Source: an uncultured Dehalococcoidales bacterium (lineage in GTDB: Bacteria; Chloroflexota; Dehalococcoidia; Dehalococcoidales; UBA5627). Taken from it: a stretch of DNA of 64,000 nucleotides. The stretch lies in NCBI GenBank assembly GCA_964399425.1, contig CAYNQR010000002.1:97084-161083 (forward strand). The letters run 5' to 3'. The translations under genes were made by a program, and so were the position numbers. This document shows, in pieces, positions 36,001-42,713 of this stretch (positions are counted from its first letter, which is position 1; each line of letters opens with the position of its first letter). The notes under the pieces were generated by a model, which saw only the letters and a list, made by a program, of their open reading frames with translations, did not search any database and was not told the DNA's origin.

Positions 36001-37013
36001 GGGGCGATGTCAGCGGACCAACTCATGCAAGCAATCCCGATGGTAATGGAGATATAATTTCCGATAATGTCAACTACGAACCATGGTTGGGTGGCAGTAT
36101 TGAACAGGAAATACTTGGAGAAGATATAAACTACTATATAGATTCCGATGGTAAAATACTTGAAGAAATAATTGCTACTTCCGATGACGGTAGTTTTACC
36201 ATCACAATTCCTGAAGGAACAATTGCTCTTGATGAATCCGGTGAGCCACTGCCCGGTATCGATGTTAGCACGGGCAACGGTATAGATCCGCCGGAGAATG
36301 CTGCTATCGTAGGTTTGATTTATAACTGGGGGCCTGAAGGGGCTACATTCGACCCGTATATAATATTTGAATTTCACTATGATGATGAGGATATCCCGAG
36401 CGGTTTCGAAGAAAAGAATTTAGTTATTATGTATTATGATTCTGATGCAGAGGAGTGGGTCGCTCTCGAAACCTTTGTCGATACACTTAATAACGTTGCA
36501 ACAGCCTACGTAACACACTTCACATCGTTTTCATTGTTTTCAGTTGAGCCGGAAATTGTAACGACCACCATTGTTTCGACAACAACAGATACAACAACAG
36601 TTGTTTCGACGATAACAAATACAACATCCATTGTTTCGTCGACAACAAATACTACAACCATAATTATTCCGGACAATACGATAACTGTTACAGTAACACA
36701 GATGTTACCGCAGTCGACCGTAACGCAGACAATGCCGCAAGCGACCGTAACTCAACTTCTACCGGGCACGGAGGAAACAGTTACGCTGCCGGTTACTATA
36801 ACGCAAACCGGTGCCGGAGCTACTGTAACACAAACTGCATTTCAAACAACAGCGATAACTACTACACAACAAAGCACAACGACTGCGACATCGACAACCA
36901 CGCAAACTATAACTCAGGACGTTATCAATTGGACAATAACCATAGTAATAGCGGTAATCGCATTGCTAATCGGGGCGCTGTTAATTGCAATAATTGCCAG
37001 GCGCATTCAATAA
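33057..37013 (+). CDS. Large secreted, C-terminally anchored surface protein with two parallel beta-helix (NosD/CASH, pectin-lyase-like) modules and a Thr-rich stalk
   Basis: Signal peptide (..ALNVWA-AD); two modules starting IQxAID..GxTxNxAAGTY and ending xATLNWWGD..GPTHASN; many I.NNTI repeats; Thr-rich segment about 36555-36920; terminal TM followed by RR; AAGGAGG RBS. Confidence 0.85.
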   Translation: MIRGIKTSGRWLLSVVLMIVISVALTAALNVWAADSPEIHHGVFAEAPYAQEDLTAVVNYKYQAPLIAGGSYVSTTEYGTMEAVLISFDGGSTYATDRGGCIYIQTVITGLSAGDIVEVDNDYFYNDGSGYSSYWDQAAYWIEVGDYTHNALNTINNWLIYIEPDGSGTYTVVIGSGQYNLAENDDDLTTIIGHSFQLTRDVKVYSGQTLSNPSVSSRGYTYSTNEDTSGWGTPIIDESYSTPDLTYVAPQFTYVNDDWAGADNGDIVGDSHVFGMDAFATIQQAIDGTADGGTVNIAAGTYVNDPYNSSLSIPESYRITKQITLLGAQAGVSPEGSVDRGEETILVRTNGTPYSLYASNIIIDGFTFTSGDGSGGGRIIVVGDNVVIQNCIIRDISGTDPHGLWIATDADNALIDNNTFSNTAWEAITCDGNAIISNNTIKNIASNKGINLSDTSDVTVTNNTISNTFYEGIFCAGEAIITFNDISSVYIGIQLRPSSNATVSNNVIYNTQYEGIAAHAAATVQDNEIYGCYHGIQIRNAASGWTIQGNNIHDNTYHGIEMPNYEGSEPVVTQALIENNTFAGNGGWGIYIGGAGEGSGLNITQNLFTGDNVNGALAAHNLASPVNATLNWWGDTGGPTHASNTYNIGQQGDAVSDNVIFAPWLDAAPPGGESFAPVTNGDNSYASIQAAIDDATAGDTINVAAGTYDENITVDKSLTINGAGAGDTTIDGDGSGVVVLITASNVTFQGFNVTGSGNNIQAHAGIVLQGVTGCTIENNTVSNNDANGIALAISSNNIIRNNATNNNGAWGIVVVNPGTNDSEATAMASTGNTFEGNTSNDNGAEGIYLDKRCNNNSVIDNTLSGNSGNGIHLYESHNNTITGNTISDNVLSGIYIKSHDNDVSENTITGNNTGNSSEHAGIYLKSGWIDHKSHVEGNQLLAENNSINHNNISGNNNAGVLYLENEYTYDDDLVIDATLNWWGDVSGPTHASNPDGNGDIISDNVNYEPWLGGSIEQEILGEDINYYIDSDGKILEEIIATSDDGSFTITIPEGTIALDESGEPLPGIDVSTGNGIDPPENAAIVGLIYNWGPEGATFDPYIIFEFHYDDEDIPSGFEEKNLVIMYYDSDAEEWVALETFVDTLNNVATAYVTHFTSFSLFSVEPEIVTTTIVSTTTDTTTVVSTITNTTSIVSSTTNTTTIIIPDNTITVTVTQMLPQSTVTQTMPQATVTQLLPGTEETVTLPVTITQTGAGATVTQTAFQTTAITTTQQSTTTATSTTTQTITQDVINWTITIVIAVIALLIGALLIAIIARRIQ

Positions 37014-37026
37014 ATATTCGATAAAT

Positions 37027-37066
37027 AAACTATAAGGCTGGGCTTAACCTCTCAGCCTTATAGTTT
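37027..37066. terminator. Bidirectional intrinsic terminator
   Basis: Perfect 14-bp inverted repeat aaactataaggctg / cagccttatagttt between convergent genes. Confidence 0.8.
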
Positions 37067-37082
37067 GTAACTGAACGGCAGT

Positions 37083-37712
37083 CTATACCGGTTTCGGGAT
37101 TAAAACACCGACCGGGCAGTTTTTAACGCATTCCATGCAGAAATCGCAATGCGCTACCGTCTCGAAGCAGGCAATTTTCGTATTATATCCCCGGTTAACA
37201 AAGTAGATATGGCTTGCCCCGTATATTTTTTCACAGGTTTGAACGCATATTCCGCAGCGGACGCATTTGTTGGGGTCGTAGTAAAGAAAAGGGGTTAGAG
37301 TCTCAAGCGGCAGTTTATTTTTAGGAAGCCGTAAGTTATCTATCCTTCGCCTGTCGATATGTAGATGCGCCATAATTTTTTGAAGCTCGCATTTTCCGTT
37401 TGCCGGGCATTCACGACAGGTGAAGTGGTGATCAGCAATGATGAGTTCAATAACGGGGCGAATTGCCGCATCTATTTCAGGAGTCATGGTTTTAACAATC
37501 ATGCCGTCTTCTAGCGGTGTACGGCAAGCCAGCACAATTTTTTCGTTATTAACTTCAACCCTGCATAAGCGGCAAACACCGCCGGGAACCAGGTCGGCGT
37601 TGTAGCAGAGATGCGGAATATAGATATCATTTTCCAGGGCTGCCTCCATAACGGTCATTCCCTTATCGGCATCGAATTGCCTGCCATCGATAGAAAAGCG
37701 TATCTTATTCAT
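37083..37712 (-). CDS. HoxU/NuoG-N-terminal-like Fe-S subunit ([2Fe-2S], His-ligated [4Fe-4S], 2x[4Fe-4S])
   Basis: IPHLC..GVCRLC..LAC, HHFTCRECPANGKCELQ, CVRCGICVQTC, CDFCMECVKNCP. Only 209 aa, with no H-cluster or Mo domain. Confidence 0.85.
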   Translation of the reverse strand: MNKIRFSIDGRQFDADKGMTVMEAALENDIYIPHLCYNADLVPGGVCRLCRVEVNNEKIVLACRTPLEDGMIVKTMTPEIDAAIRPVIELIIADHHFTCRECPANGKCELQKIMAHLHIDRRRIDNLRLPKNKLPLETLTPFLYYDPNKCVRCGICVQTCEKIYGASHIYFVNRGYNTKIACFETVAHCDFCMECVKNCPVGVLIPKPV

Positions 37713-39402
37713 CTATATTTTCTCCGCCATTGAGGAATTGGCATACCTTTGCGGGGCATCTTTTATGATTTATGTGGGCTTCATATTCATCCCTGAAATA
37801 ACGCAGAGTAGTCAAAACCGGGTTGGGAGCAGTCCTTCCCAGTCCGCAAAGCGAGGTCTCGGCCACCGAATCGCTGATTTCGAGAAGCATATCGATATCC
37901 GTCTGTTTGCCTTTCCCTTTTGCAATATCATCAAGAATCTCGAACATCTGTTTTGTGCCCAGACGGCAGGGAATACATTGCCCGCAGGATTCCTGCCTGG
38001 CAAAATCGAGAAAAAAGCGCGCCACATCTACCATGCAGGTATCTTCATCTAAAACGACCATACCGCCGGAACCCATAATCGAGCCGGCAGCTGCCAGCGA
38101 ATCGAATGCAACCGGCAGGTCGAGCAGTTCGGCCGGCAAGCATCCACCCGAAGGGCCGCCTGTCTGAACCGCTTTAAATGTTTTACCGTTCGGGATGCCT
38201 CCTCCGATATCGTAAATTATCTTTCGAAGAGTGATTCCCATCGGCACCTCGATAAGTCCGCGGTTAGACACCTTGCCGGTAAGCGCAAATATTGCCGTGC
38301 CTTTGCTGCTATCAGTCCCGCGTTCGGCAAACCACTGTGCACCGTTTGTGATAATTGCCGGGATATTGGCGAATGTTTTGACGTTATTGATATCGGTGGG
38401 TTTTCCCCATAAACCGCTTTGAGCGGGAAAAGGAGGGCGGTGGCGCGGCATTCCCCTGTTTCCTTCGATAGATGCCAATAGCGCCGATTCTTCACCGCAG
38501 ACAAAGGCTCCGGCGCCTTCCCTGATTTCGATATCGAAACTAAAACCCGAATCCAGTATATTTTCACCCAGAAGCCGGTATTGGCGCATTTGTTCTATGG
38601 CGGTTCTCACTCTTTTTATGGCCAGTGGATATTCATCCCTGATATATATATAACCGCGACTGCATCCGATGGCATAGGCTGCAATCAGCATTCCTTCCAG
38701 TACCGAATGAGGGTCGCTTTCGAGAAGCGACCTGTCCATATAGGCTCCCGGGTCGCCTTCGTCGGCATTGCAAATCAGGTATTTCGGGAAGGATTCCGCC
38801 TTGCGGCATTCCTTCCATTTGAACCCGGTAGGGAAACCAGCCCCGCCGAGTCCCCGTAATCCCGATTTCTCCACTTCATCTATAATATCCCCCTTGGGAA
38901 TGCATAGAGCTTTTTCGAAACCCTTATAGCCTCCAAGCGCGATATATTGAGAAATATCCTCGGGGTTAATCATGCCGATATTTTTGAGAACCGTGCGCTG
39001 CTGGTGTTTCATGAAATCGATTTCGAAGAGGTCGGCAATGCCGTCTATTTCACTTCCCCAAACGGCGAGTGCCAGGTCGGGACGGCAATTATTATTCAGC
39101 AGGTAATCCTTTACAAGCTCCGCGGCTGTATCCGGAGCAAGATTTTTATAAGTGATGCGGGGTTGCCCCGGTTTAATGATATCTACCATCGGCTCGCAGT
39201 AGCACATACCCAGGCAGCCGGTCTTGTGAATACGGGCTTGAATGCGGTTTTTAATCAGGGCGGATTCTATGGATTTGTATACGGATAGGGCGCCGGCAGC
39301 TTCGCCGCAGGTAGCCATGCCGATAAATATCTGCGGTATGGAAGGGTCTGTTATCGACTGCCATTCATTTTCAGCTTTTGCCCTGGAATCTGCCAATCCC
39401 AT
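37705..39402 (-). CDS. NuoF/HoxF/HydB-like FMN/NAD(P)H-binding subunit
   Basis: N-terminal thioredoxin-like Cys motif (ATCG..GCLGMCYCEP), SGLRGLGGAGFPTG, NADEGDPGAYMDR, FVCGEESAL, ESCGQCIPCR..SLCGLG. Confidence 0.9.
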   Translation of the reverse strand: MGLADSRAKAENEWQSITDPSIPQIFIGMATCGEAAGALSVYKSIESALIKNRIQARIHKTGCLGMCYCEPMVDIIKPGQPRITYKNLAPDTAAELVKDYLLNNNCRPDLALAVWGSEIDGIADLFEIDFMKHQQRTVLKNIGMINPEDISQYIALGGYKGFEKALCIPKGDIIDEVEKSGLRGLGGAGFPTGFKWKECRKAESFPKYLICNADEGDPGAYMDRSLLESDPHSVLEGMLIAAYAIGCSRGYIYIRDEYPLAIKRVRTAIEQMRQYRLLGENILDSGFSFDIEIREGAGAFVCGEESALLASIEGNRGMPRHRPPFPAQSGLWGKPTDINNVKTFANIPAIITNGAQWFAERGTDSSKGTAIFALTGKVSNRGLIEVPMGITLRKIIYDIGGGIPNGKTFKAVQTGGPSGGCLPAELLDLPVAFDSLAAAGSIMGSGGMVVLDEDTCMVDVARFFLDFARQESCGQCIPCRLGTKQMFEILDDIAKGKGKQTDIDMLLEISDSVAETSLCGLGRTAPNPVLTTLRYFRDEYEAHINHKRCPAKVCQFLNGGENIDE

Positions 39403-39429
39403 CCTGTACCTCCGCTAATAAAATTGAAA

Positions 39430-40155
39430 TTATCCGTAGCTTTCGTCGTTTATCTCAGTGACTTTGAAGAGTTTTTTAATTTTATCCGAGTCCATTTTTC
39501 CGTATGTTTCACTGTTTACCGTTACAACCGGAGCCAGAGCGCAACAGCCGACACAGGCTACGGTGTCGAGAGTATACTCATTGTCTGCAGAAGTTTCGCC
39601 CTCTTTTATGCCCAGCAGTTTCTCGGTATCTCTTGTCAACTGAGGCGCGCCGCTGATATGGCAGGCGGTGCCTCGGCAGATACAGACATGCCGTCTTCCG
39701 GGAGGAGTAAGCCGCAGGGATTTATAAAAAGAAGCCACCGAATGAATATGTCCCTCTGGCAACTTAAGAAAGCGGGCGATATGGCTGACCATATCTTTCG
39801 GCAGGTAACCGAAATTGGACTGGAGTTCGAGCAGAATGGGGATTAAGCCGCTTTTATCGCCGTTGTAAAAGGAAAGAACCTTGCCTAATCTCAGGTATTT
39901 AAACAGGGGGATGCTCATCGGGCATTCCGTGGTACAATCACCGCAATCGTTACATTCGTCGATACCGTGTTTTTTGCTATCGGCAAAGCGGCCGTTTTTA
40001 ATATCTTCCAAAAGAATCGACGGCCAAAGACCTTTATCGCAGACTTCCAGGCATAAGCTGCAATCGATGCAGGGATTTTCCCTTATCAATTCTTTATCGG
40101 AAGGCTTATCATCCCGCTTTTTGAAAAAAGACAGAACCGGCGCAATCTTGTTCAT
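39430..40155 (-). CDS. NuoE/HoxE-like [2Fe-2S] subunit with N-terminal 2x[4Fe-4S] domain
   Basis: C-terminal ILLELQSNFGYLP..VASFY..ICRGTACH..ACVGCCALAP; N-terminal CIDCSLCLEVC and CNDCGDCTTECP. Confidence 0.85.
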   Translation of the reverse strand: MNKIAPVLSFFKKRDDKPSDKELIRENPCIDCSLCLEVCDKGLWPSILLEDIKNGRFADSKKHGIDECNDCGDCTTECPMSIPLFKYLRLGKVLSFYNGDKSGLIPILLELQSNFGYLPKDMVSHIARFLKLPEGHIHSVASFYKSLRLTPPGRRHVCICRGTACHISGAPQLTRDTEKLLGIKEGETSADNEYTLDTVACVGCCALAPVVTVNSETYGKMDSDKIKKLFKVTEINDESYG

Positions 40156-40352
40156 CTTCTACATTATCCTCAGCAATAACTTTAGCATGATACTAGCCAT
40201 AAAAACCTCTATTAGTATATCAACTAAATCGGATAAATATAGTCCAGTATATAGTAAAATAGCTGTTTTGTCACTATTTTATTGGATATAAGTATATGCC
40301 GGTTTATATACAAATTAAACAATAATTATTTCAGGCGGCAGAGAAAAATACC

Positions 40353-40380
40353 TTGACAAAAAAGCAGTAATTATTATATT
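40353..40380 (+). promoter_or_regulatory. Possible promoter upstream of mgsD
   Basis: TTGACA-16 bp-TATATT, about 270 nt before the start codon. Confidence 0.3.
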
Positions 40381-40649
40381 GTTAGTCGGCGCTGTCTGGC
40401 ATATCAGTTCACTTCAAATTTCCGACTGTAATCTTATCCGTATTATCAGTATCAAATAAATCAATGCGACCTTAAAAAATGCGTTTAAGACGGGTAAAAC
40501 GGAATACGTAAAATAGAGGTTATTGATTGCCGGATTTAATGCAATATTTAATATAACAGGTATTATAACGTATAAAAAACATGAAAATTTTAATATTATT
40601 TCTGGTAGAATTTCTGCCATAGTAAGAATTGTAAAAGGAGGAAAATGTT

Positions 40650-42713
40650 ATGCGTTTTGAAGCTATCAGACCTGCCGACCATATAGGTCCGGTTAAAATA
40701 CATGCTGTCTGCCGCGCTCTCGAACTGGATTCCGGTTCGGATGCGGGCGTTCTTGCAAAAGACAACGCCGGCACGCGCCGTATAACGCGTGAAGCCAGTT
40801 CGAATATCGAACAGAAGCTGGCAATTGTTTTACCTGTGAAGAACGAGGACTTGAAAGTATTCGAGGGAGTGCTGAGCGGTATTCCGCATGATTGCCTGAT
40901 GATAGTTATATCAAACAGCAATCCGGACTATTTTAAAAGCGAAAAAGACATTGTAAACCGCTTTTGCAATGTGAATAAGCGCCAGGCCCTGGTTGTCCAT
41001 CAAAAAGACCCCGATCTTGCCAACGCCTTTTCGTTTTCCGGTTATCCGGATATCATCGATGATGACGGGCTTATCCGCAACGGTAAAAGCGAGGGGATGA
41101 TAATCGGCATCATAATGTCGAAAATAATGGGCAGGGAATACGTAGGATTTATCGATACCGATAATTACATTCCGGGTGCCGTAATGGAGTATGTTAAACA
41201 TTATGCCTCCGGTTTCAGCATGATTGAATCGCCGTACGCCATGGTTCGTATTTTATGGAAATATAAACCGAAACTGATCGGAGAATTATATTTTAAGAAA
41301 TGGGGGCGCGTTTCAGAGATAAGCAACCGTTTTGTAAATGCGCTGCTTTCCACCAAGGGCAGATTTGAAACCGAGGTAATTAAGACTGCGAATGCCGGAG
41401 AGCATGCCATGAGTCTGGAACTGGCTATGAGGCTGACCTACGGTTCCGGTTATGCCGTAGAGACGCAGGAATTGATATCAATACTTGAGAATTTCAGCGG
41501 CATTTTGGAACCAACCGATGACCTGATTTTCGAAAAAGGCGTGGAAGTTATCCAGACGGAATCCATCAATCCCCATCTGCATGCCGAAAAAGGAGACGAC
41601 CACCTGCTGCAGGAGATGCTGCTTCCCAGTCTTTCCGTGATATATTACAGTCCCCTGTGTGAAGAAAAAACGAAAGAAATGATTAAAAAGCAACTGGTAG
41701 ATATGGAATGTATAAAGGAGGGAGATGAAGTTCCCAATATACAATTGATAGCGCCTCCGCAGAACATCTACCTTTCAATGTTTGCAGATAATATAGAAAG
41801 TATCATGCCGAGATTCGTTGTTCCGGATAAATCGATTTATAGAATAGCCGTCGACCGGAGAAAGAAACCGGATTCTGCCAAAAAAGTGGTTGTTACCGAC
41901 CTCGACGGAACGCTGCTCGATTCTCAAAATTATTCTTATATCCTGGCGCTCGATGCCATCAGGAAGCTGCAGGGAATGGATATCCCGATTGTTTTTTGCT
42001 CTTCGAAAACAAGATCGGAACAGGAAGTATATCGTGAGGAACTGGATATCAACGCGCCTTTCATTGTGGAAAACGGAGGCGCTCTATATATTCCCAAGGA
42101 TTATTTCAGGCTGCCGTTTTCTTATGACAAAGTTGTTTCCGACTATATGGTTGTCGAATTCGGTGTCGCTTATCATGAACTGCGTCATAAACTAAAGCAA
42201 GCATTGGATTCTGCCTATCATCAGATTGAGACTAACAGTCTGGGTGAAATACTTATTAACAGCTTCGGAGATATGACAATCGAAGAAGTTGCCAAAGAAA
42301 CCGGGCTGGGGTTAAAAATGGCTGCTCTGGCTAAACAAAGGGAATACAGCGAAACGATAACGATTAAAGGCAGCAAAAGAGCCGTAGAAGCGGCGTTCGA
42401 TGAAATAAAGAAGGCCGGTTTGTTATGCACGTTCGGCGGCCGGTTTTATGAAGTTACCGGAGGCAACGACAAGGGGAAGGCAGTAAAAATACTCCTTGAA
42501 CTCTACAAGATGAACTATGGAAATGTAGCGTCATTCGGAATAGGAAACAATGTAAACGACCTGCCTCTTCTTTCACAGACAGATTCCCGTATGCTGGTTC
42601 AGGGAGCGGATAGAAGATGGAGCCGTATGAATATCTCCGGTCTCTACAAGGTCAGGGGAATCGGCCCCGACGGATGGAGTAAAGCTATCGAAATGATGCT
42701 CTCCAAACCGTAA
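40650..42713 (+). CDS. mgsD: Bifunctional mannosyl-3-phosphoglycerate synthase/phosphatase (mannosylglycerate synthesis)
   Basis: MPGS domain (IVLPVKNE, GKSEGM, GFIDTDNYIPG, WGRVSE, NAGEHAMS) fused to a HAD MPGP domain (VVTDLDGTLLD, SSKT, VENG, GGRFY, DKGKAV). Confidence 0.9.
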   Translation: MRFEAIRPADHIGPVKIHAVCRALELDSGSDAGVLAKDNAGTRRITREASSNIEQKLAIVLPVKNEDLKVFEGVLSGIPHDCLMIVISNSNPDYFKSEKDIVNRFCNVNKRQALVVHQKDPDLANAFSFSGYPDIIDDDGLIRNGKSEGMIIGIIMSKIMGREYVGFIDTDNYIPGAVMEYVKHYASGFSMIESPYAMVRILWKYKPKLIGELYFKKWGRVSEISNRFVNALLSTKGRFETEVIKTANAGEHAMSLELAMRLTYGSGYAVETQELISILENFSGILEPTDDLIFEKGVEVIQTESINPHLHAEKGDDHLLQEMLLPSLSVIYYSPLCEEKTKEMIKKQLVDMECIKEGDEVPNIQLIAPPQNIYLSMFADNIESIMPRFVVPDKSIYRIAVDRRKKPDSAKKVVVTDLDGTLLDSQNYSYILALDAIRKLQGMDIPIVFCSSKTRSEQEVYREELDINAPFIVENGGALYIPKDYFRLPFSYDKVVSDYMVVEFGVAYHELRHKLKQALDSAYHQIETNSLGEILINSFGDMTIEEVAKETGLGLKMAALAKQREYSETITIKGSKRAVEAAFDEIKKAGLLCTFGGRFYEVTGGNDKGKAVKILLELYKMNYGNVASFGIGNNVNDLPLLSQTDSRMLVQGADRRWSRMNISGLYKVRGIGPDGWSKAIEMMLSKP

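Follow-up and report, generated by a model that had tools for sequence, protein, structure and literature searches.

An EFU-type gene trio with an RnfC-type 2x[4Fe-4S] domain fused to the NuoE-like subunit in an uncultured Dehalococcoidales bacterium

The window, by which we mean the whole 64-kb stretch of DNA that was analysed, carries on its minus strand three co-oriented genes for subunits designated E, F and U. The genes, the domains of E and the flanking signals are arranged as follows.

37018 to 37066, minus strand: intrinsic-terminator-like hairpin (37027-37066) and U-rich tail; the U gene and a beta-helix protein gene converge on it
37083 to 37712, minus strand: U subunit gene, 209 aa, minimal BfuA/HoxU/NuoG N-terminus
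37705 to 39402, minus strand: F subunit gene, 565 aa, NuoF/BfuB-like
39430 to 40155, minus strand: E subunit gene, 241 aa, RnfC-type 2x[4Fe-4S] domain N-terminal to a NuoE/HoxE/BfuC-type [2Fe-2S] protein
39463 to 39879, minus strand: NuoE-type core of E, residues 93-231 (PF01257, E 4e-43)
39880 to 40071, minus strand: dicluster domain of E, residues 29-92 (CxxCxxCxxxC, 28 residues, CxxCxxCxxxCP)
40246 to 40274, minus strand: promoter-like site (GTGACA, 17 nt, TATACT), a consensus match only, in the 494-nt divergent region upstream of E

The E and F genes are separated by 27 nt, and F and U overlap by 8 nt. On the 3′ side of U lies a 16-bp interrupted hairpin with UUUAUUUAU after it. Its folding energy is -20.7 kcal/mol (z -5.3), a stability reached by none of 200 shuffled sequences; the hairpin came from direct folding, a consensus terminator scan of the minus strand having returned nothing. 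No Rfam families were found in 36900-40700. The open reading frames and the hairpin thus bear out the preliminary description of a co-oriented trio with a terminator after the last gene. Its remark that no catalytic gene is adjacent also holds, since no hydrogenase, formate dehydrogenase or other redox enzyme adjoins the trio or occurs among 20 larger ORFs scanned, which comprise the neighbours of the trio and other large ORFs across the window.

Residues 1-92 of E make up an RnfC-type 2x[4Fe-4S] domain. The segment in which an RnfC pattern had been noticed earlier, nt 39880-40071, corresponds exactly to residues 29-92, and the profile matches are specific for RnfC rather than for a generic ferredoxin. 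Residues 25-92 align with positions 361-428 of TIGR01945 (rnfC) at E 1.7e-14, that is, with the C-terminal dicluster domain of RnfC; the RsxC model matches the same residues (E 3.2e-13), and residues 368-433 of the solved RnfC chain 8ahx_C match the N-terminal domain at E 3e-6. Within the organism's own genome, the best paralogue of this domain is the C-terminus of RnfC (37% identity, E 4e-11), while the next ferredoxin domain reaches just E 0.016. An exhaustive HMMER search with the dicluster domain gave, after the fused family itself, mostly proteins of about 400-500 aa that align near residues 330-450, as RnfC would. The 68-residue match to RnfC (TIGR01945; 8ahx_C, 7zc6_C) covers its C-terminal 2x[4Fe-4S] domain including the long spacer between the Cys motifs, whereas the FMN/SLBB part is absent from E, the full-model score being 53 bits against a cut-off of 246. 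RnfC proper is encoded with rnfDGEAB.

In an alignment of 19 fused E orthologues (A1; identity down to 53%), the eight dicluster cysteines (C29, 32, 35, 39, 68, 71, 74 and 78) are invariant in all 19 sequences. Among the [2Fe-2S] ligands of the core, C165, C201 and C205 are likewise invariant and C160 is nearly so. The best solved relatives of the E core are NfnC, HydC and NiFe-HydC. In the AF2 monomer of E the NuoE core is modelled well and residues 1-42 and 73-80 fall below pLDDT 50; this prediction gives no placement of the N-terminal domain near the [2Fe-2S] of E.

The F subunit consists of an N-terminal thioredoxin-like [2Fe-2S] domain, an FMN/NAD(H) domain, an SLBB domain and an N3-type [4Fe-4S] domain (PF01512, E 1e-48; PF10531, SLBB; PF10589, E 3e-34), and ends in CPAKVC-QFLNGGENIDE. 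As had been noted from the sequence, it stops there without the C-terminal dicluster domain of HydB: no Fer4 family matches F (P0002), and its alignment with solved BfuB-type chains of 584-630 aa stops at their residue ~526-541, so that about 60 last residues are missing. The same domain is missing from all 8 F orthologues. In phmmer comparisons with solved B subunits F gave E values of 1e-170 to 1e-207 (about 1e-200 for Nfn-Bfu, NiFe-HydB and HydB), and its similarity to bifurcating B subunits (E 1e-206) far exceeds that to complex I NuoF (1e-111). Its N-terminal domain, residues 25-105, can be aligned with those of NfnB, HydB and StnB; C32, C63 and C67 are conserved there, the fused clade adds C69, and NF041613 matches weakly. 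The [4Fe-4S] ligands C473, C476, C479 and C519 are conserved. F passes the NCBIfam NuoF model NF010120 (397.5, cut-off 389) but not TIGR01959 (488 vs 559).

The flavin motif GGPSG is present in F, and the AFM motif reads AYM. AYM is also the reading in most of the fused clade; G006 has AFM, and the F subunits of the GltB-linked clusters described below have AFQ. The GLRGLGG sequence reported earlier is indeed found at residues 181-187. As a mark of the architecture it was rejected, since two members of the fused clade (G018 and G006) retain GLRGRGG, and GLRGLGG occurs in all GltB-linked F and in one D. mccartyi F; it is a convergent, subclade-level change and no hallmark of the architecture.

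The U subunit carries motifs for a [2Fe-2S], a His-ligated [4Fe-4S] and a 2x[4Fe-4S] site, with all ligands invariant in 8 sequences. Its 209 aa cover only residues ~1-210 of NuoG, the molybdopterin-like part being absent, and its closest relative among solved chains is the N-terminus of HydA1.

Eight of the 11 other species of the genus have the trio as one conserved unit, as does one other family of the same order. The trio is kept together while its neighbours change, the flanks in G003, G018 and G006 being unrelated, and no catalytic partner lies beside it in any of 8 genomes representing three different contexts. Fused E is paired with a truncated F in 8/8 triads read, and about 14 database clusters of 555-567 aa are likewise truncated F proteins accompanying fused E. 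A survey of databases showed the fusion to be rare and lineage-restricted: it was found in ~16 clusters among 5.8 billion proteins and in one of the best 150 matches among 1.84 billion representatives.

The three subunits are homologous to BfuC, BfuB and the N-terminus of BfuA of the Bfu enzymes (HydABC, NfnABC/StnABC, NiFe-HydABCSL; 9bov, 9n5u, 7t2r, 7q4v, 8a6t, 7p5h). By the family definition, BfuB carries a C-terminal dicluster domain (IPR017896; B3/B4) (PMC9304861, Schut et al. 2022). This domain is missing from F, which has the BfuB core (Nuo51 FMN, SLBB and NADH_4Fe-4S domains) and the N-terminal thioredoxin-like [2Fe-2S] domain. The NuoE-type [2Fe-2S] domain of BfuC (IPR002023) is present in E, but the RnfC-type dicluster domain of E is absent from every BfuC-type chain that the search of solved structures matched. 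BfuA has at least a [2Fe-2S] and 4Fe-4S ferredoxin-type domains and feeds in electrons from a third substrate; U shows these domains but no catalytic one, and in none of the genomes examined did a catalytic domain or subunit for a third substrate turn up beside the trio. Among the motifs described for Bfu and bifurcating hydrogenases (AFM, a single Phe, GGPSG; preprint 10.64898/2026.06.25.734504), the trio keeps GGPSG and has AYM in place of AFM.

Cyanobacterial HoxEFU (group 3d; PMC7363133, PMC11647496) offers the same E/F/U set, with an F that has the N-terminal [2Fe-2S] and no C-terminal diclusters and a U of ~210-240 aa, so that it shares the architecture of the trio without being closest in sequence; the trio scores below the curated cut-offs for HoxE (NF005747, 126.6 vs 224) and HoxU (NF005745, 133.3 vs 333). 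HoxE is reported with the [2Fe-2S] E1 only, to which the E of the trio adds two [4Fe-4S] motifs, and HoxEFU is encoded with hoxY and hoxH, whereas neither lies beside the trio or among the 20 window ORFs scanned. HoxEFU reacts with both NAD(H) and ferredoxin (PMC7363133, PMC11647496; preprint 10.64898/2026.06.25.734504). The earlier premise, that the HydB C-terminal clusters are required for bifurcation, no longer holds in general, because HoxEFUYH, which has no dicluster domain, is now reported to bifurcate, ferredoxin being proposed to exchange at the surface [2Fe-2S] clusters E1 and F2 (2026 preprint 10.64898/2026.06.25.734504). The HydABC of S. wolfei, which has no HydB C-terminal clusters (B3/B4), is non-bifurcating. 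The presence or absence of the diclusters is therefore no reliable predictor of function. Compared with the complex I N-module (NuoEFG), which has a full-length NuoG with its molybdopterin-like domain, U is minimal; E scores 133.4 on the NuoE model NF005722 (cut-off 141), and no nuo genes, whether for the membrane or the Q module, lie near the trio.

The nearest relatives of the E core and of U (56-65% and 54-60% identity) belong to EFU clusters with a conserved gene order, NrpR, HisF-like, GltB-like, small ferredoxin, E, F and U (L040-L045, L049, L051 and L092), which occur in Dehalococcoidia, in Thermodesulfovibrionales and in one deltaproteobacterial MAG. Their F also lacks the C-terminal dicluster domain and has the same end point, CPAGVC. 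As in the window trio, a dicluster module is found on the E side, but as a separate gene: a ferredoxin of about 74 aa is encoded immediately upstream of E in 9 of 12 truncated-F loci of this type. The clusters also differ in their linkage to GltB-like, HisF-like and NrpR genes, which the window trio does not share. The small upstream ferredoxin would fit an E-side dicluster that compensates for the one lost from F. However, these ferredoxins have a first motif of Cx3Cx4Cx3CP and show no detectable homology to the RnfC-type domain, with no RnfC match, and three truncated-F clusters (L050, L061 and L084) have no extra ferredoxin at all, so that an E-side dicluster module is not obligatory.

In phylogenetic trees the window E core falls inside the GltB-linked clade of E proteins and the window U inside that of U proteins, while window F belongs to another clade than GltB-linked F (AU test, p 8.5e-48) and descends from full-length Nfn/Fdh-type Bfu B subunits. 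The N-terminal [2Fe-2S] signature also differs between the two kinds of F. The triad is thus a mosaic, with an E core and U from the GltB-linked lineage, an F from the Nfn/Fdh-Bfu lineage and an N-terminal domain of RnfC type. The suggestion that a ferredoxin domain was re-acquired on E is right in placing an RnfC-type domain there and none at the end of F; re-acquisition itself oversimplifies a history that the trees show to be mosaic. This make-up and the convergent, subclade-level nature of GLRGLGG are what is new here. Four 560-aa proteins (P0136, P0140, P0179 and P0200) were considered as a third independent truncated-F lineage and rejected: the metagenomic proteins nearest to them include F-GltD fusions of ~1026 aa and full-length F of ~640 aa, and they therefore provide no independent test.

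From its ligand motifs and domains, F is clearly predicted to bind FMN and NAD(H) and to hold the N-terminal [2Fe-2S] and one [4Fe-4S], U to hold one [2Fe-2S] and three [4Fe-4S], and E to hold the NuoE-type [2Fe-2S] and two extra [4Fe-4S] in its N-terminal domain. We tentatively propose that the trio forms one soluble heterotrimer of the HydABC or Bfu-HoxEFU kind in which the E diclusters replace B3/B4 as the ferredoxin exchange site, a reading that we hold to be possible though somewhat short of probable. FMN would take electrons from NADH. One wire would lead from FMN through the F [4Fe-4S] and the U cluster chain to a partner or acceptor encoded outside the neighbourhood of the trio, and a second, low-potential wire from FMN through the E [2Fe-2S] to the N-terminal diclusters, which would stand in for the missing B3/B4 and exchange electrons with ferredoxin. 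The module would then be a reversible hub joining NADH and ferredoxin that might bifurcate or confurcate. The low-potential path of solved Nfn-Bfu runs from C1 to B3/B4 to ferredoxin, which binds between the C-terminal domain of the C subunit and the Fd-like domain of the B subunit (PMC12018979); for this reason a C subunit with a tethered dicluster domain is geometrically conceivable.

A relocated ferredoxin exit is plausible on the sequence evidence. The closeness of F to bifurcating B subunits, its GGPSG and N-terminal [2Fe-2S], the strict pairing of fused E with truncated F and the cohesion of the three genes amid changing neighbours argue for it, as do the small ferredoxin gene upstream of E in most sister clusters and the analogy with RnfC, where the dicluster domain works beside a NuoF-like FMN domain. 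Against it speak the sister clusters in so far as their small ferredoxins are not detectably RnfC-type and some have none, and the reports on HoxEFUYH and S. wolfei HydABC. A bolder version, in which the trio is a working bifurcating Bfu-type core, its exit diclusters moved from the B to the C subunit in a domain descended from RnfC, and serves as a free-standing plug docking via the bare U onto one or more enzymes elsewhere, seems rather unlikely.

Somewhat doubtful, though to be weighed seriously, is the alternative that the trio is a plain non-bifurcating NADH dehydrogenase (diaphorase), like the complex I N-module, FdsBG or the S. wolfei HydABC, in which electrons would pass solely from NADH via FMN and the Fe-S chain to a partner, with the E dicluster as a relay or docking piece for that partner and not a ferredoxin exit. 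The B3/B4 domain by which Bfu B subunits are defined (PMC9304861) is absent from F, as it is from the non-bifurcating S. wolfei HydB; F passes a NuoF model, and the AYM and GLRGLGG of most members suggest a changed flavin/NAD site. However, F is far nearer to bifurcating B subunits than to NuoF, it has retained the N-terminal [2Fe-2S] domain and GGPSG, and no gene for a partner adjoins the trio in the 8 genomes. The invariance of the eight extra cysteines of E also speaks against a plain diaphorase, though it is compatible with either reading.

The genome holds other ferredoxin-linked systems, namely Rnf, Hdr/Mvh and Nfn-like clusters. A separate complete rnfC, whose product has a PF01512 match, lies on contig C3 and is followed by four co-oriented genes sized like rnfDGEA. 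The reliance of the genome on such systems, and the fact that the trio is always alone with a terminator at its end, would suit a self-sufficient reversible NADH:ferredoxin oxidoreductase that needs no third partner, like isolated HoxEFU in vitro, and provides a soluble route beside Rnf. We consider this improbable, because uncoupled electron transfer from NADH to ferredoxin is endergonic and the reverse reaction dissipates energy that could be conserved by Rnf; a U with four clusters and no acceptor would also be left unexplained.

The [NiFe] hydrogenases found elsewhere in the genome include one linked to Hdr/Mvh, one with its own NAD-binding subunit and one adjoining the Rnf genes. As a partner of the trio, an [FeFe] hydrogenase was rejected, the sole Fe_hyd_lg_C gene encoding a sensory hydrogenase-histidine kinase, and so was a WOR/AOR enzyme, no AOR family gene having been found in the genome; the WOR/AOR idea came from G028, in which an AOR gene adjoins a related NuoEF pair.

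Another candidate is the GltB-like iron-sulfur flavoprotein (530 aa) encoded on contig C27, for which the trio would serve as a detached electron-input module. The position of the E core and U within GltB-linked clades and the conserved clusters seen elsewhere suggest this, but we regard it as highly improbable. G008 (98% complete) has the trio with no GltB-like gene found, G004 (95% complete) and G010 have a GltB-like gene with no fused E found, and in this genus the GltB-like gene always stands beside a different NuoE/NuoF/NuoG-GltD cluster. The canonical NrpR operator motif, GGAA-N6-TTCC, has no match across the window, including the region upstream of E. Least probable of all is that the trio acts as the N module, for NADH input, which a complex I-like or group 4 hydrogenase-like membrane complex encoded elsewhere would otherwise lack. 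Contig C3 does encode a six-gene complex with a NuoCD-like subunit, and for marine Chloroflexi it has been proposed that 11-subunit Nuo complexes are served by separate nuoEFG operons (PMC5736913). However, U lacks the NuoG molybdopterin-like part through which the N module is anchored, all three subunits are nearer to Bfu than to Nuo proteins, and in no genome examined is the trio linked to such a complex.

The mechanism of Bfu (HydABC-type) enzymes is disputed, among other points as to the clusters that make up the low-potential branch and the binding site of ferredoxin. A natural variant without B3/B4 on the B subunit and with another dicluster on the C subunit offers a ready test: a trimer that still couples NADH to ferredoxin would mean that the dicluster station may be placed differently, and one that does not would point to some other role for the domain. 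Should the bifurcating plug prove true, what matters would be a dicluster within reach of the mobile C1 and not its covalent attachment to BfuB, and the fused form, together with the split form that has a small ferredoxin, would constitute a previously unclassified Bfu branch outside current domain-based definitions. Surveys that require the ferredoxin domain on BfuB miss whole clades, both the fused clade and the widespread EFU clusters linked to NrpR and GltB-like genes. For the organism itself, which also has Rnf, Hdr/Mvh and Nfn-like systems, the trio would be one more link between its NADH and ferredoxin pools.

Three genes of a NuoEF-type electron module, separated by 27 nt between E and F and overlapping by 8 nt between F and U, span positions 37083-40155 of the window, all on the minus strand:

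39430-40155, minus strand: E, NuoE-like with an N-terminal RnfC-type domain, ORF of 241 aa
37705-39402, minus strand: F, NuoF/BfuB-like, ORF of 565 aa
37083-37712, minus strand: U, HoxU/NuoG-N-terminal, ORF of 209 aa
37027-37066, 3' of U: terminator-like hairpin with a U-rich tail (folding: -20.7 kcal/mol, z -5.3)

The hairpin, which was missed by a consensus terminator scan because its loop is long, sits between U and a convergent gene for a 1318-aa beta-helix protein. On the 5' side, E shares a 494-nt divergent region with a fused mannosyl-3-phosphoglycerate synthase/phosphatase gene. Our scan of the adjacent ORFs and of further large ORFs in the window turned up housekeeping or sugar metabolism genes; no redox enzyme, such as a hydrogenase or formate dehydrogenase, was found among them. 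ORF calls and domain searches bear out every element of what the preliminary description had observed here, including the coordinates given for the dicluster motif.

Residues 93-231 of E correspond to PF01257 (NuoE/HoxE/BfuC). The N-terminus had been described as following the RnfC 2x[4Fe-4S] pattern, and indeed residues 25-92 match the RnfC/RsxC C-terminal dicluster domain (TIGR01945 positions 361-428, E 1.7e-14) as well as the solved RnfC chains 8ahx_C and 7zc6_C. The best paralogue of this domain in the organism's own genome is the C-terminus of RnfC (37% identity, E 4e-11), other ferredoxin domains of the genome giving E 0.016 or worse. A NuoE homologue from a Planctomycetota MAG (L057: 6929-7498), adjoining a full-length 627-aa F, is likewise extended at its N-terminus by a Cys-rich stretch (CSPCLCGDSGECP...CWRC), which may be a further metal site of an E subunit, unrelated to this one.

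F comprises a thioredoxin-like [2Fe-2S] domain followed by the Nuo51 FMN domain, an SLBB domain and an N3-type [4Fe-4S] domain, and a domain search of F found no Fer4 domain. Among solved chains, F comes closest to the B subunits of Nfn-Bfu/Stn, NiFe-HydABCSL and HydABC (E 1e-170 to 1e-207), which have 584-630 aa; since the alignment of F ends at their residue ~526-541, the missing piece is exactly the C-terminal dicluster (B3/B4) domain, as the preliminary description had it for HydB. U corresponds to HydA1, NuoG or FdhA over their first ~207 residues and has complete ligand sets for a [2Fe-2S] cluster, a His-ligated [4Fe-4S] cluster and two further [4Fe-4S] clusters. Most F of the fused clade carry an extra Cys in the N-terminal [2Fe-2S] domain (GCLGMCYCEP; C69 in the window, 39196-39198) at a position taken by Ala, Val, Gly or Met in long Bfu B subunits; with it, a cluster that in other Bfu enzymes has some non-Cys ligands could gain a full set of four Cys.

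When full-length E was searched from this genome (1.62 Mb, 62 contigs, 95% complete), the fused form, covered from residue 1-4 to ~235, was recovered in 8 of the 11 other species of the genus and, outside it, in a single species from a different family of the order; in 48 further genomes of the order no fused form was found, only unfused NuoE. A homologue at 94% identity carries the label Dehalococcoidales. Across 19 sequences, with identities as low as 53%, none of the eight Cys in the N-terminal domain varies, and all eight F orthologues (565-572 aa) share the same end point. E, F and U occur together and in the same order in all seven genomes whose flanks were read, and the flanks vary, for example:

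G003: histidine kinase/response regulator, U32/DUF4405 genes
G018: radical SAM gene; molybdopterin oxidoreductase on the other strand
G006: holA/alaS

In G003 (L027: 10518-12326) the trio closes a long co-oriented gene run, with a U32-peptidase-family gene and a DUF4405 gene directly 5' on the same strand; of the trio's contexts, this one alone gives a hint of linked function. An exhaustive HMMER search of 1.84 billion representatives, with the N-terminal domain of E alone as query, gave a single confirmed NuoE fusion among the best 150 matches, namely a 236-aa representative of the fused-E family. Most others of these 150 were ~400-500-aa proteins aligned near residues 330-450 with the RnfC pattern, and the shorter matches scanned proved to be fragments resembling RnfC or proteins with a plain ferredoxin domain. 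Only about 16 fused clusters occur in a collection of 5.8 billion proteins. Given this conservation and these surveys, the fusion is no assembly artefact and is neither generic nor common; the objection, raised beforehand, that it might be a common architecture gave way to a rare, lineage-restricted one.

A profile search placed PF01512 at four sites in the organism's own genome, and hydrogenases were found on contigs C5 and C3:

Window: the trio
C3: RnfC, first of a co-oriented gene run sized like rnfDGEA
C27: NuoE, NuoF (625 aa, with Fer4) and NuoG-N-terminus-GltD, adjoining NrpR and a 530-aa GltB-like gene
C28: NuoE, NuoF-GltD fusion and FdhA
C5/C3: HdrA-MvhDGA set
C5/C3: NiFe hydrogenase, adjacent subunit with its own NAD-binding domain
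C5/C3: NiFe hydrogenase adjoining Rnf genes
C5/C3: sensory FeFe-hydrogenase-histidine kinase
C5/C3: complex with a NuoCD-like subunit

The trio is unlinked to any of these systems, and no AOR gene was found in the genome. The C27 cluster (L010, 4679-12659; GltB-like gene with weak PF01645, NrpR, Fic, NuoE of 153 aa, NuoF, and a terminal 704-aa NuoG-GltD fusion) resembles a glutamate-synthase-like enzyme under nitrogen regulation, equipped with an electron module of Bfu type; in the six other species of the genus checked, the distance between the GltB-like gene and a ~633-aa NuoF is 3-5 kb. In the C28 cluster (L011, 3064-9961) and in L128, L130 and L132, NuoF-GltD-like fusions of 1006-1027 aa adjoin NuoE and an FdhA with a NuoG-type N-terminus, and the GltD Fer4_20 domain starts at the expected site of the Bfu dicluster domain. 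On C5 (L033, 15-15671) a single strand encodes a 998-aa HdrA-like protein, MvhD, MvhG, MvhA, a sigma-54-like protein, the sensory [FeFe]-hydrogenase-histidine kinase fusion (649 aa), a sigma-54 activator and lastly a second [NiFe] hydrogenase, whose 793-aa subunit starts with a response-regulator receiver domain.

Both the E core (56-65% identity) and U (54-60%) have their closest unfused relatives in GltB-linked clusters, composed of NrpR, a HisF-like gene (PF00977), a GltB-like gene (520-530 aa, weak PF01645), a ~74-aa dicluster ferredoxin whose first motif is Cx3Cx4Cx3CP, E (160 aa), F (545-561 aa, no Fer4) and U (209 aa). They are hosted by several Dehalococcoidia MAGs and one deltaproteobacterial MAG (L040-L045, L049), and a variant with an FdhA-like A subunit occurs in Thermodesulfovibrionales MAGs (L051, L092). 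A small ferredoxin gene lies directly 5' of E in 9 of 12 loci of this other truncated-F lineage.

In maximum-likelihood trees the fused-clade E core and U fall inside the GltB-linked E and U clades (SH-aLRT 91-95), while fused-clade F is sister (97) to ~640-aa full-length B subunits of Nfn-type (NuoG-GltD) and Fdh-type clusters. Grouping fused-clade F with GltB-linked F was rejected (AU p 8.5e-48), as was grouping fused E with the E subunits of long-F clusters (AU p 1e-4), these p values being descriptive because the groups were defined once the trees were known. Fused-clade and long F also share the N-terminal [2Fe-2S] signature ATCG...GC(L/I)G.CY.EP; that of GltB-linked F is GTGC...GCHGFC. 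By trees, AU tests and signature, the trio is a mosaic of three sources: GltB-linked for the E core and U, Nfn/Fdh-Bfu for F, which has lost its dicluster domain, and RnfC-type for the N-terminal domain of E. The C27 system is incongruent too, its E grouping with long-F Nfn/Fdh E and its F with G028 and C28, and exchange of subunits between paralogous NuoEF systems may be frequent in the order.

The GLRGLGG motif that had been pointed out in F is present (residues 181-187, 38842-38862) but does not mark the fusion, and we rejected it as a definer: F of G018 and G006 retain GLRGRGG, and GLRGLGG with AFQ instead of AFM occurs in every GltB-linked F and in a D. mccartyi F, which at 605 aa is longer than the others. 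By this distribution, the R-to-L change arose more than once in F lacking the dicluster domain, in the fused clade and in the GltB-linked/D. mccartyi clade, each time paired with a change of AFM (to AYM in most fused-clade F). It may mark a shifted flavin/NAD site.

In current Nfn-Bfu structures the low-potential path runs from FMN through C1, carried on the C subunit's mobile C-terminal domain, to B3/B4 and ferredoxin, which binds between that domain and the Fd-like domain of the B subunit (PMC12018979). The Bfu family definition requires a ferredoxin-type domain on BfuB (PMC9304861), and window F departs from it in this respect only. E would supply two [4Fe-4S] clusters on the same side of the complex as the missing B3/B4. 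Per trimer, 1 FMN, 3 [2Fe-2S] and 6 [4Fe-4S] would be expected. We tentatively propose a NADH-plus-ferredoxin hub whose exit clusters have moved from F to E. Such a relocation is the best single explanation, because fused E is strictly paired with truncated F, the eight N-terminal Cys do not vary and a small ferredoxin gene recurs 5' of E in the other truncated-F lineage. It is limited by three related clusters without an extra ferredoxin (L050, L061, L084), by the different type of the GltB-linked small ferredoxins, and by HoxEFUYH, reported to bifurcate with ferredoxin exchange proposed at the surface [2Fe-2S] clusters E1 and F2 (preprint 10.64898/2026.06.25.734504). A further limit is the S. 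wolfei HydABC, which is without B3/B4 and non-bifurcating; a plain diaphorase, with the E domain serving for docking or relay, is a somewhat unlikely alternative. A self-sufficient NADH:ferredoxin oxidoreductase is less probable still. Service to a GltB-like protein, an idea prompted by the ancestral linkage of E and U to such a gene, is very doubtful, as the two do not consistently co-occur in the genus: G008 has the trio and no GltB-like gene was found there, G004 and G010 have the gene and no fused E was found, and in the genus that gene always adjoins the C27-type NuoEF-GltD cluster. A complex I-type N module is the most improbable reading.

NuoEF-based Bfu/HoxEFU modules are of a known kind, and no description of the fused-E/truncated-F architecture was found in the literature searched. 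What is new is the RnfC-type domain on E tied to loss of the BfuB dicluster domain, the retention of this pairing as a unit across the genus and beyond, the mosaic origin of the trio, and the existence of a parallel split form in which a small ferredoxin gene is separate from E. The trio is thus a natural experiment on the low-potential branch of Bfu enzymes.
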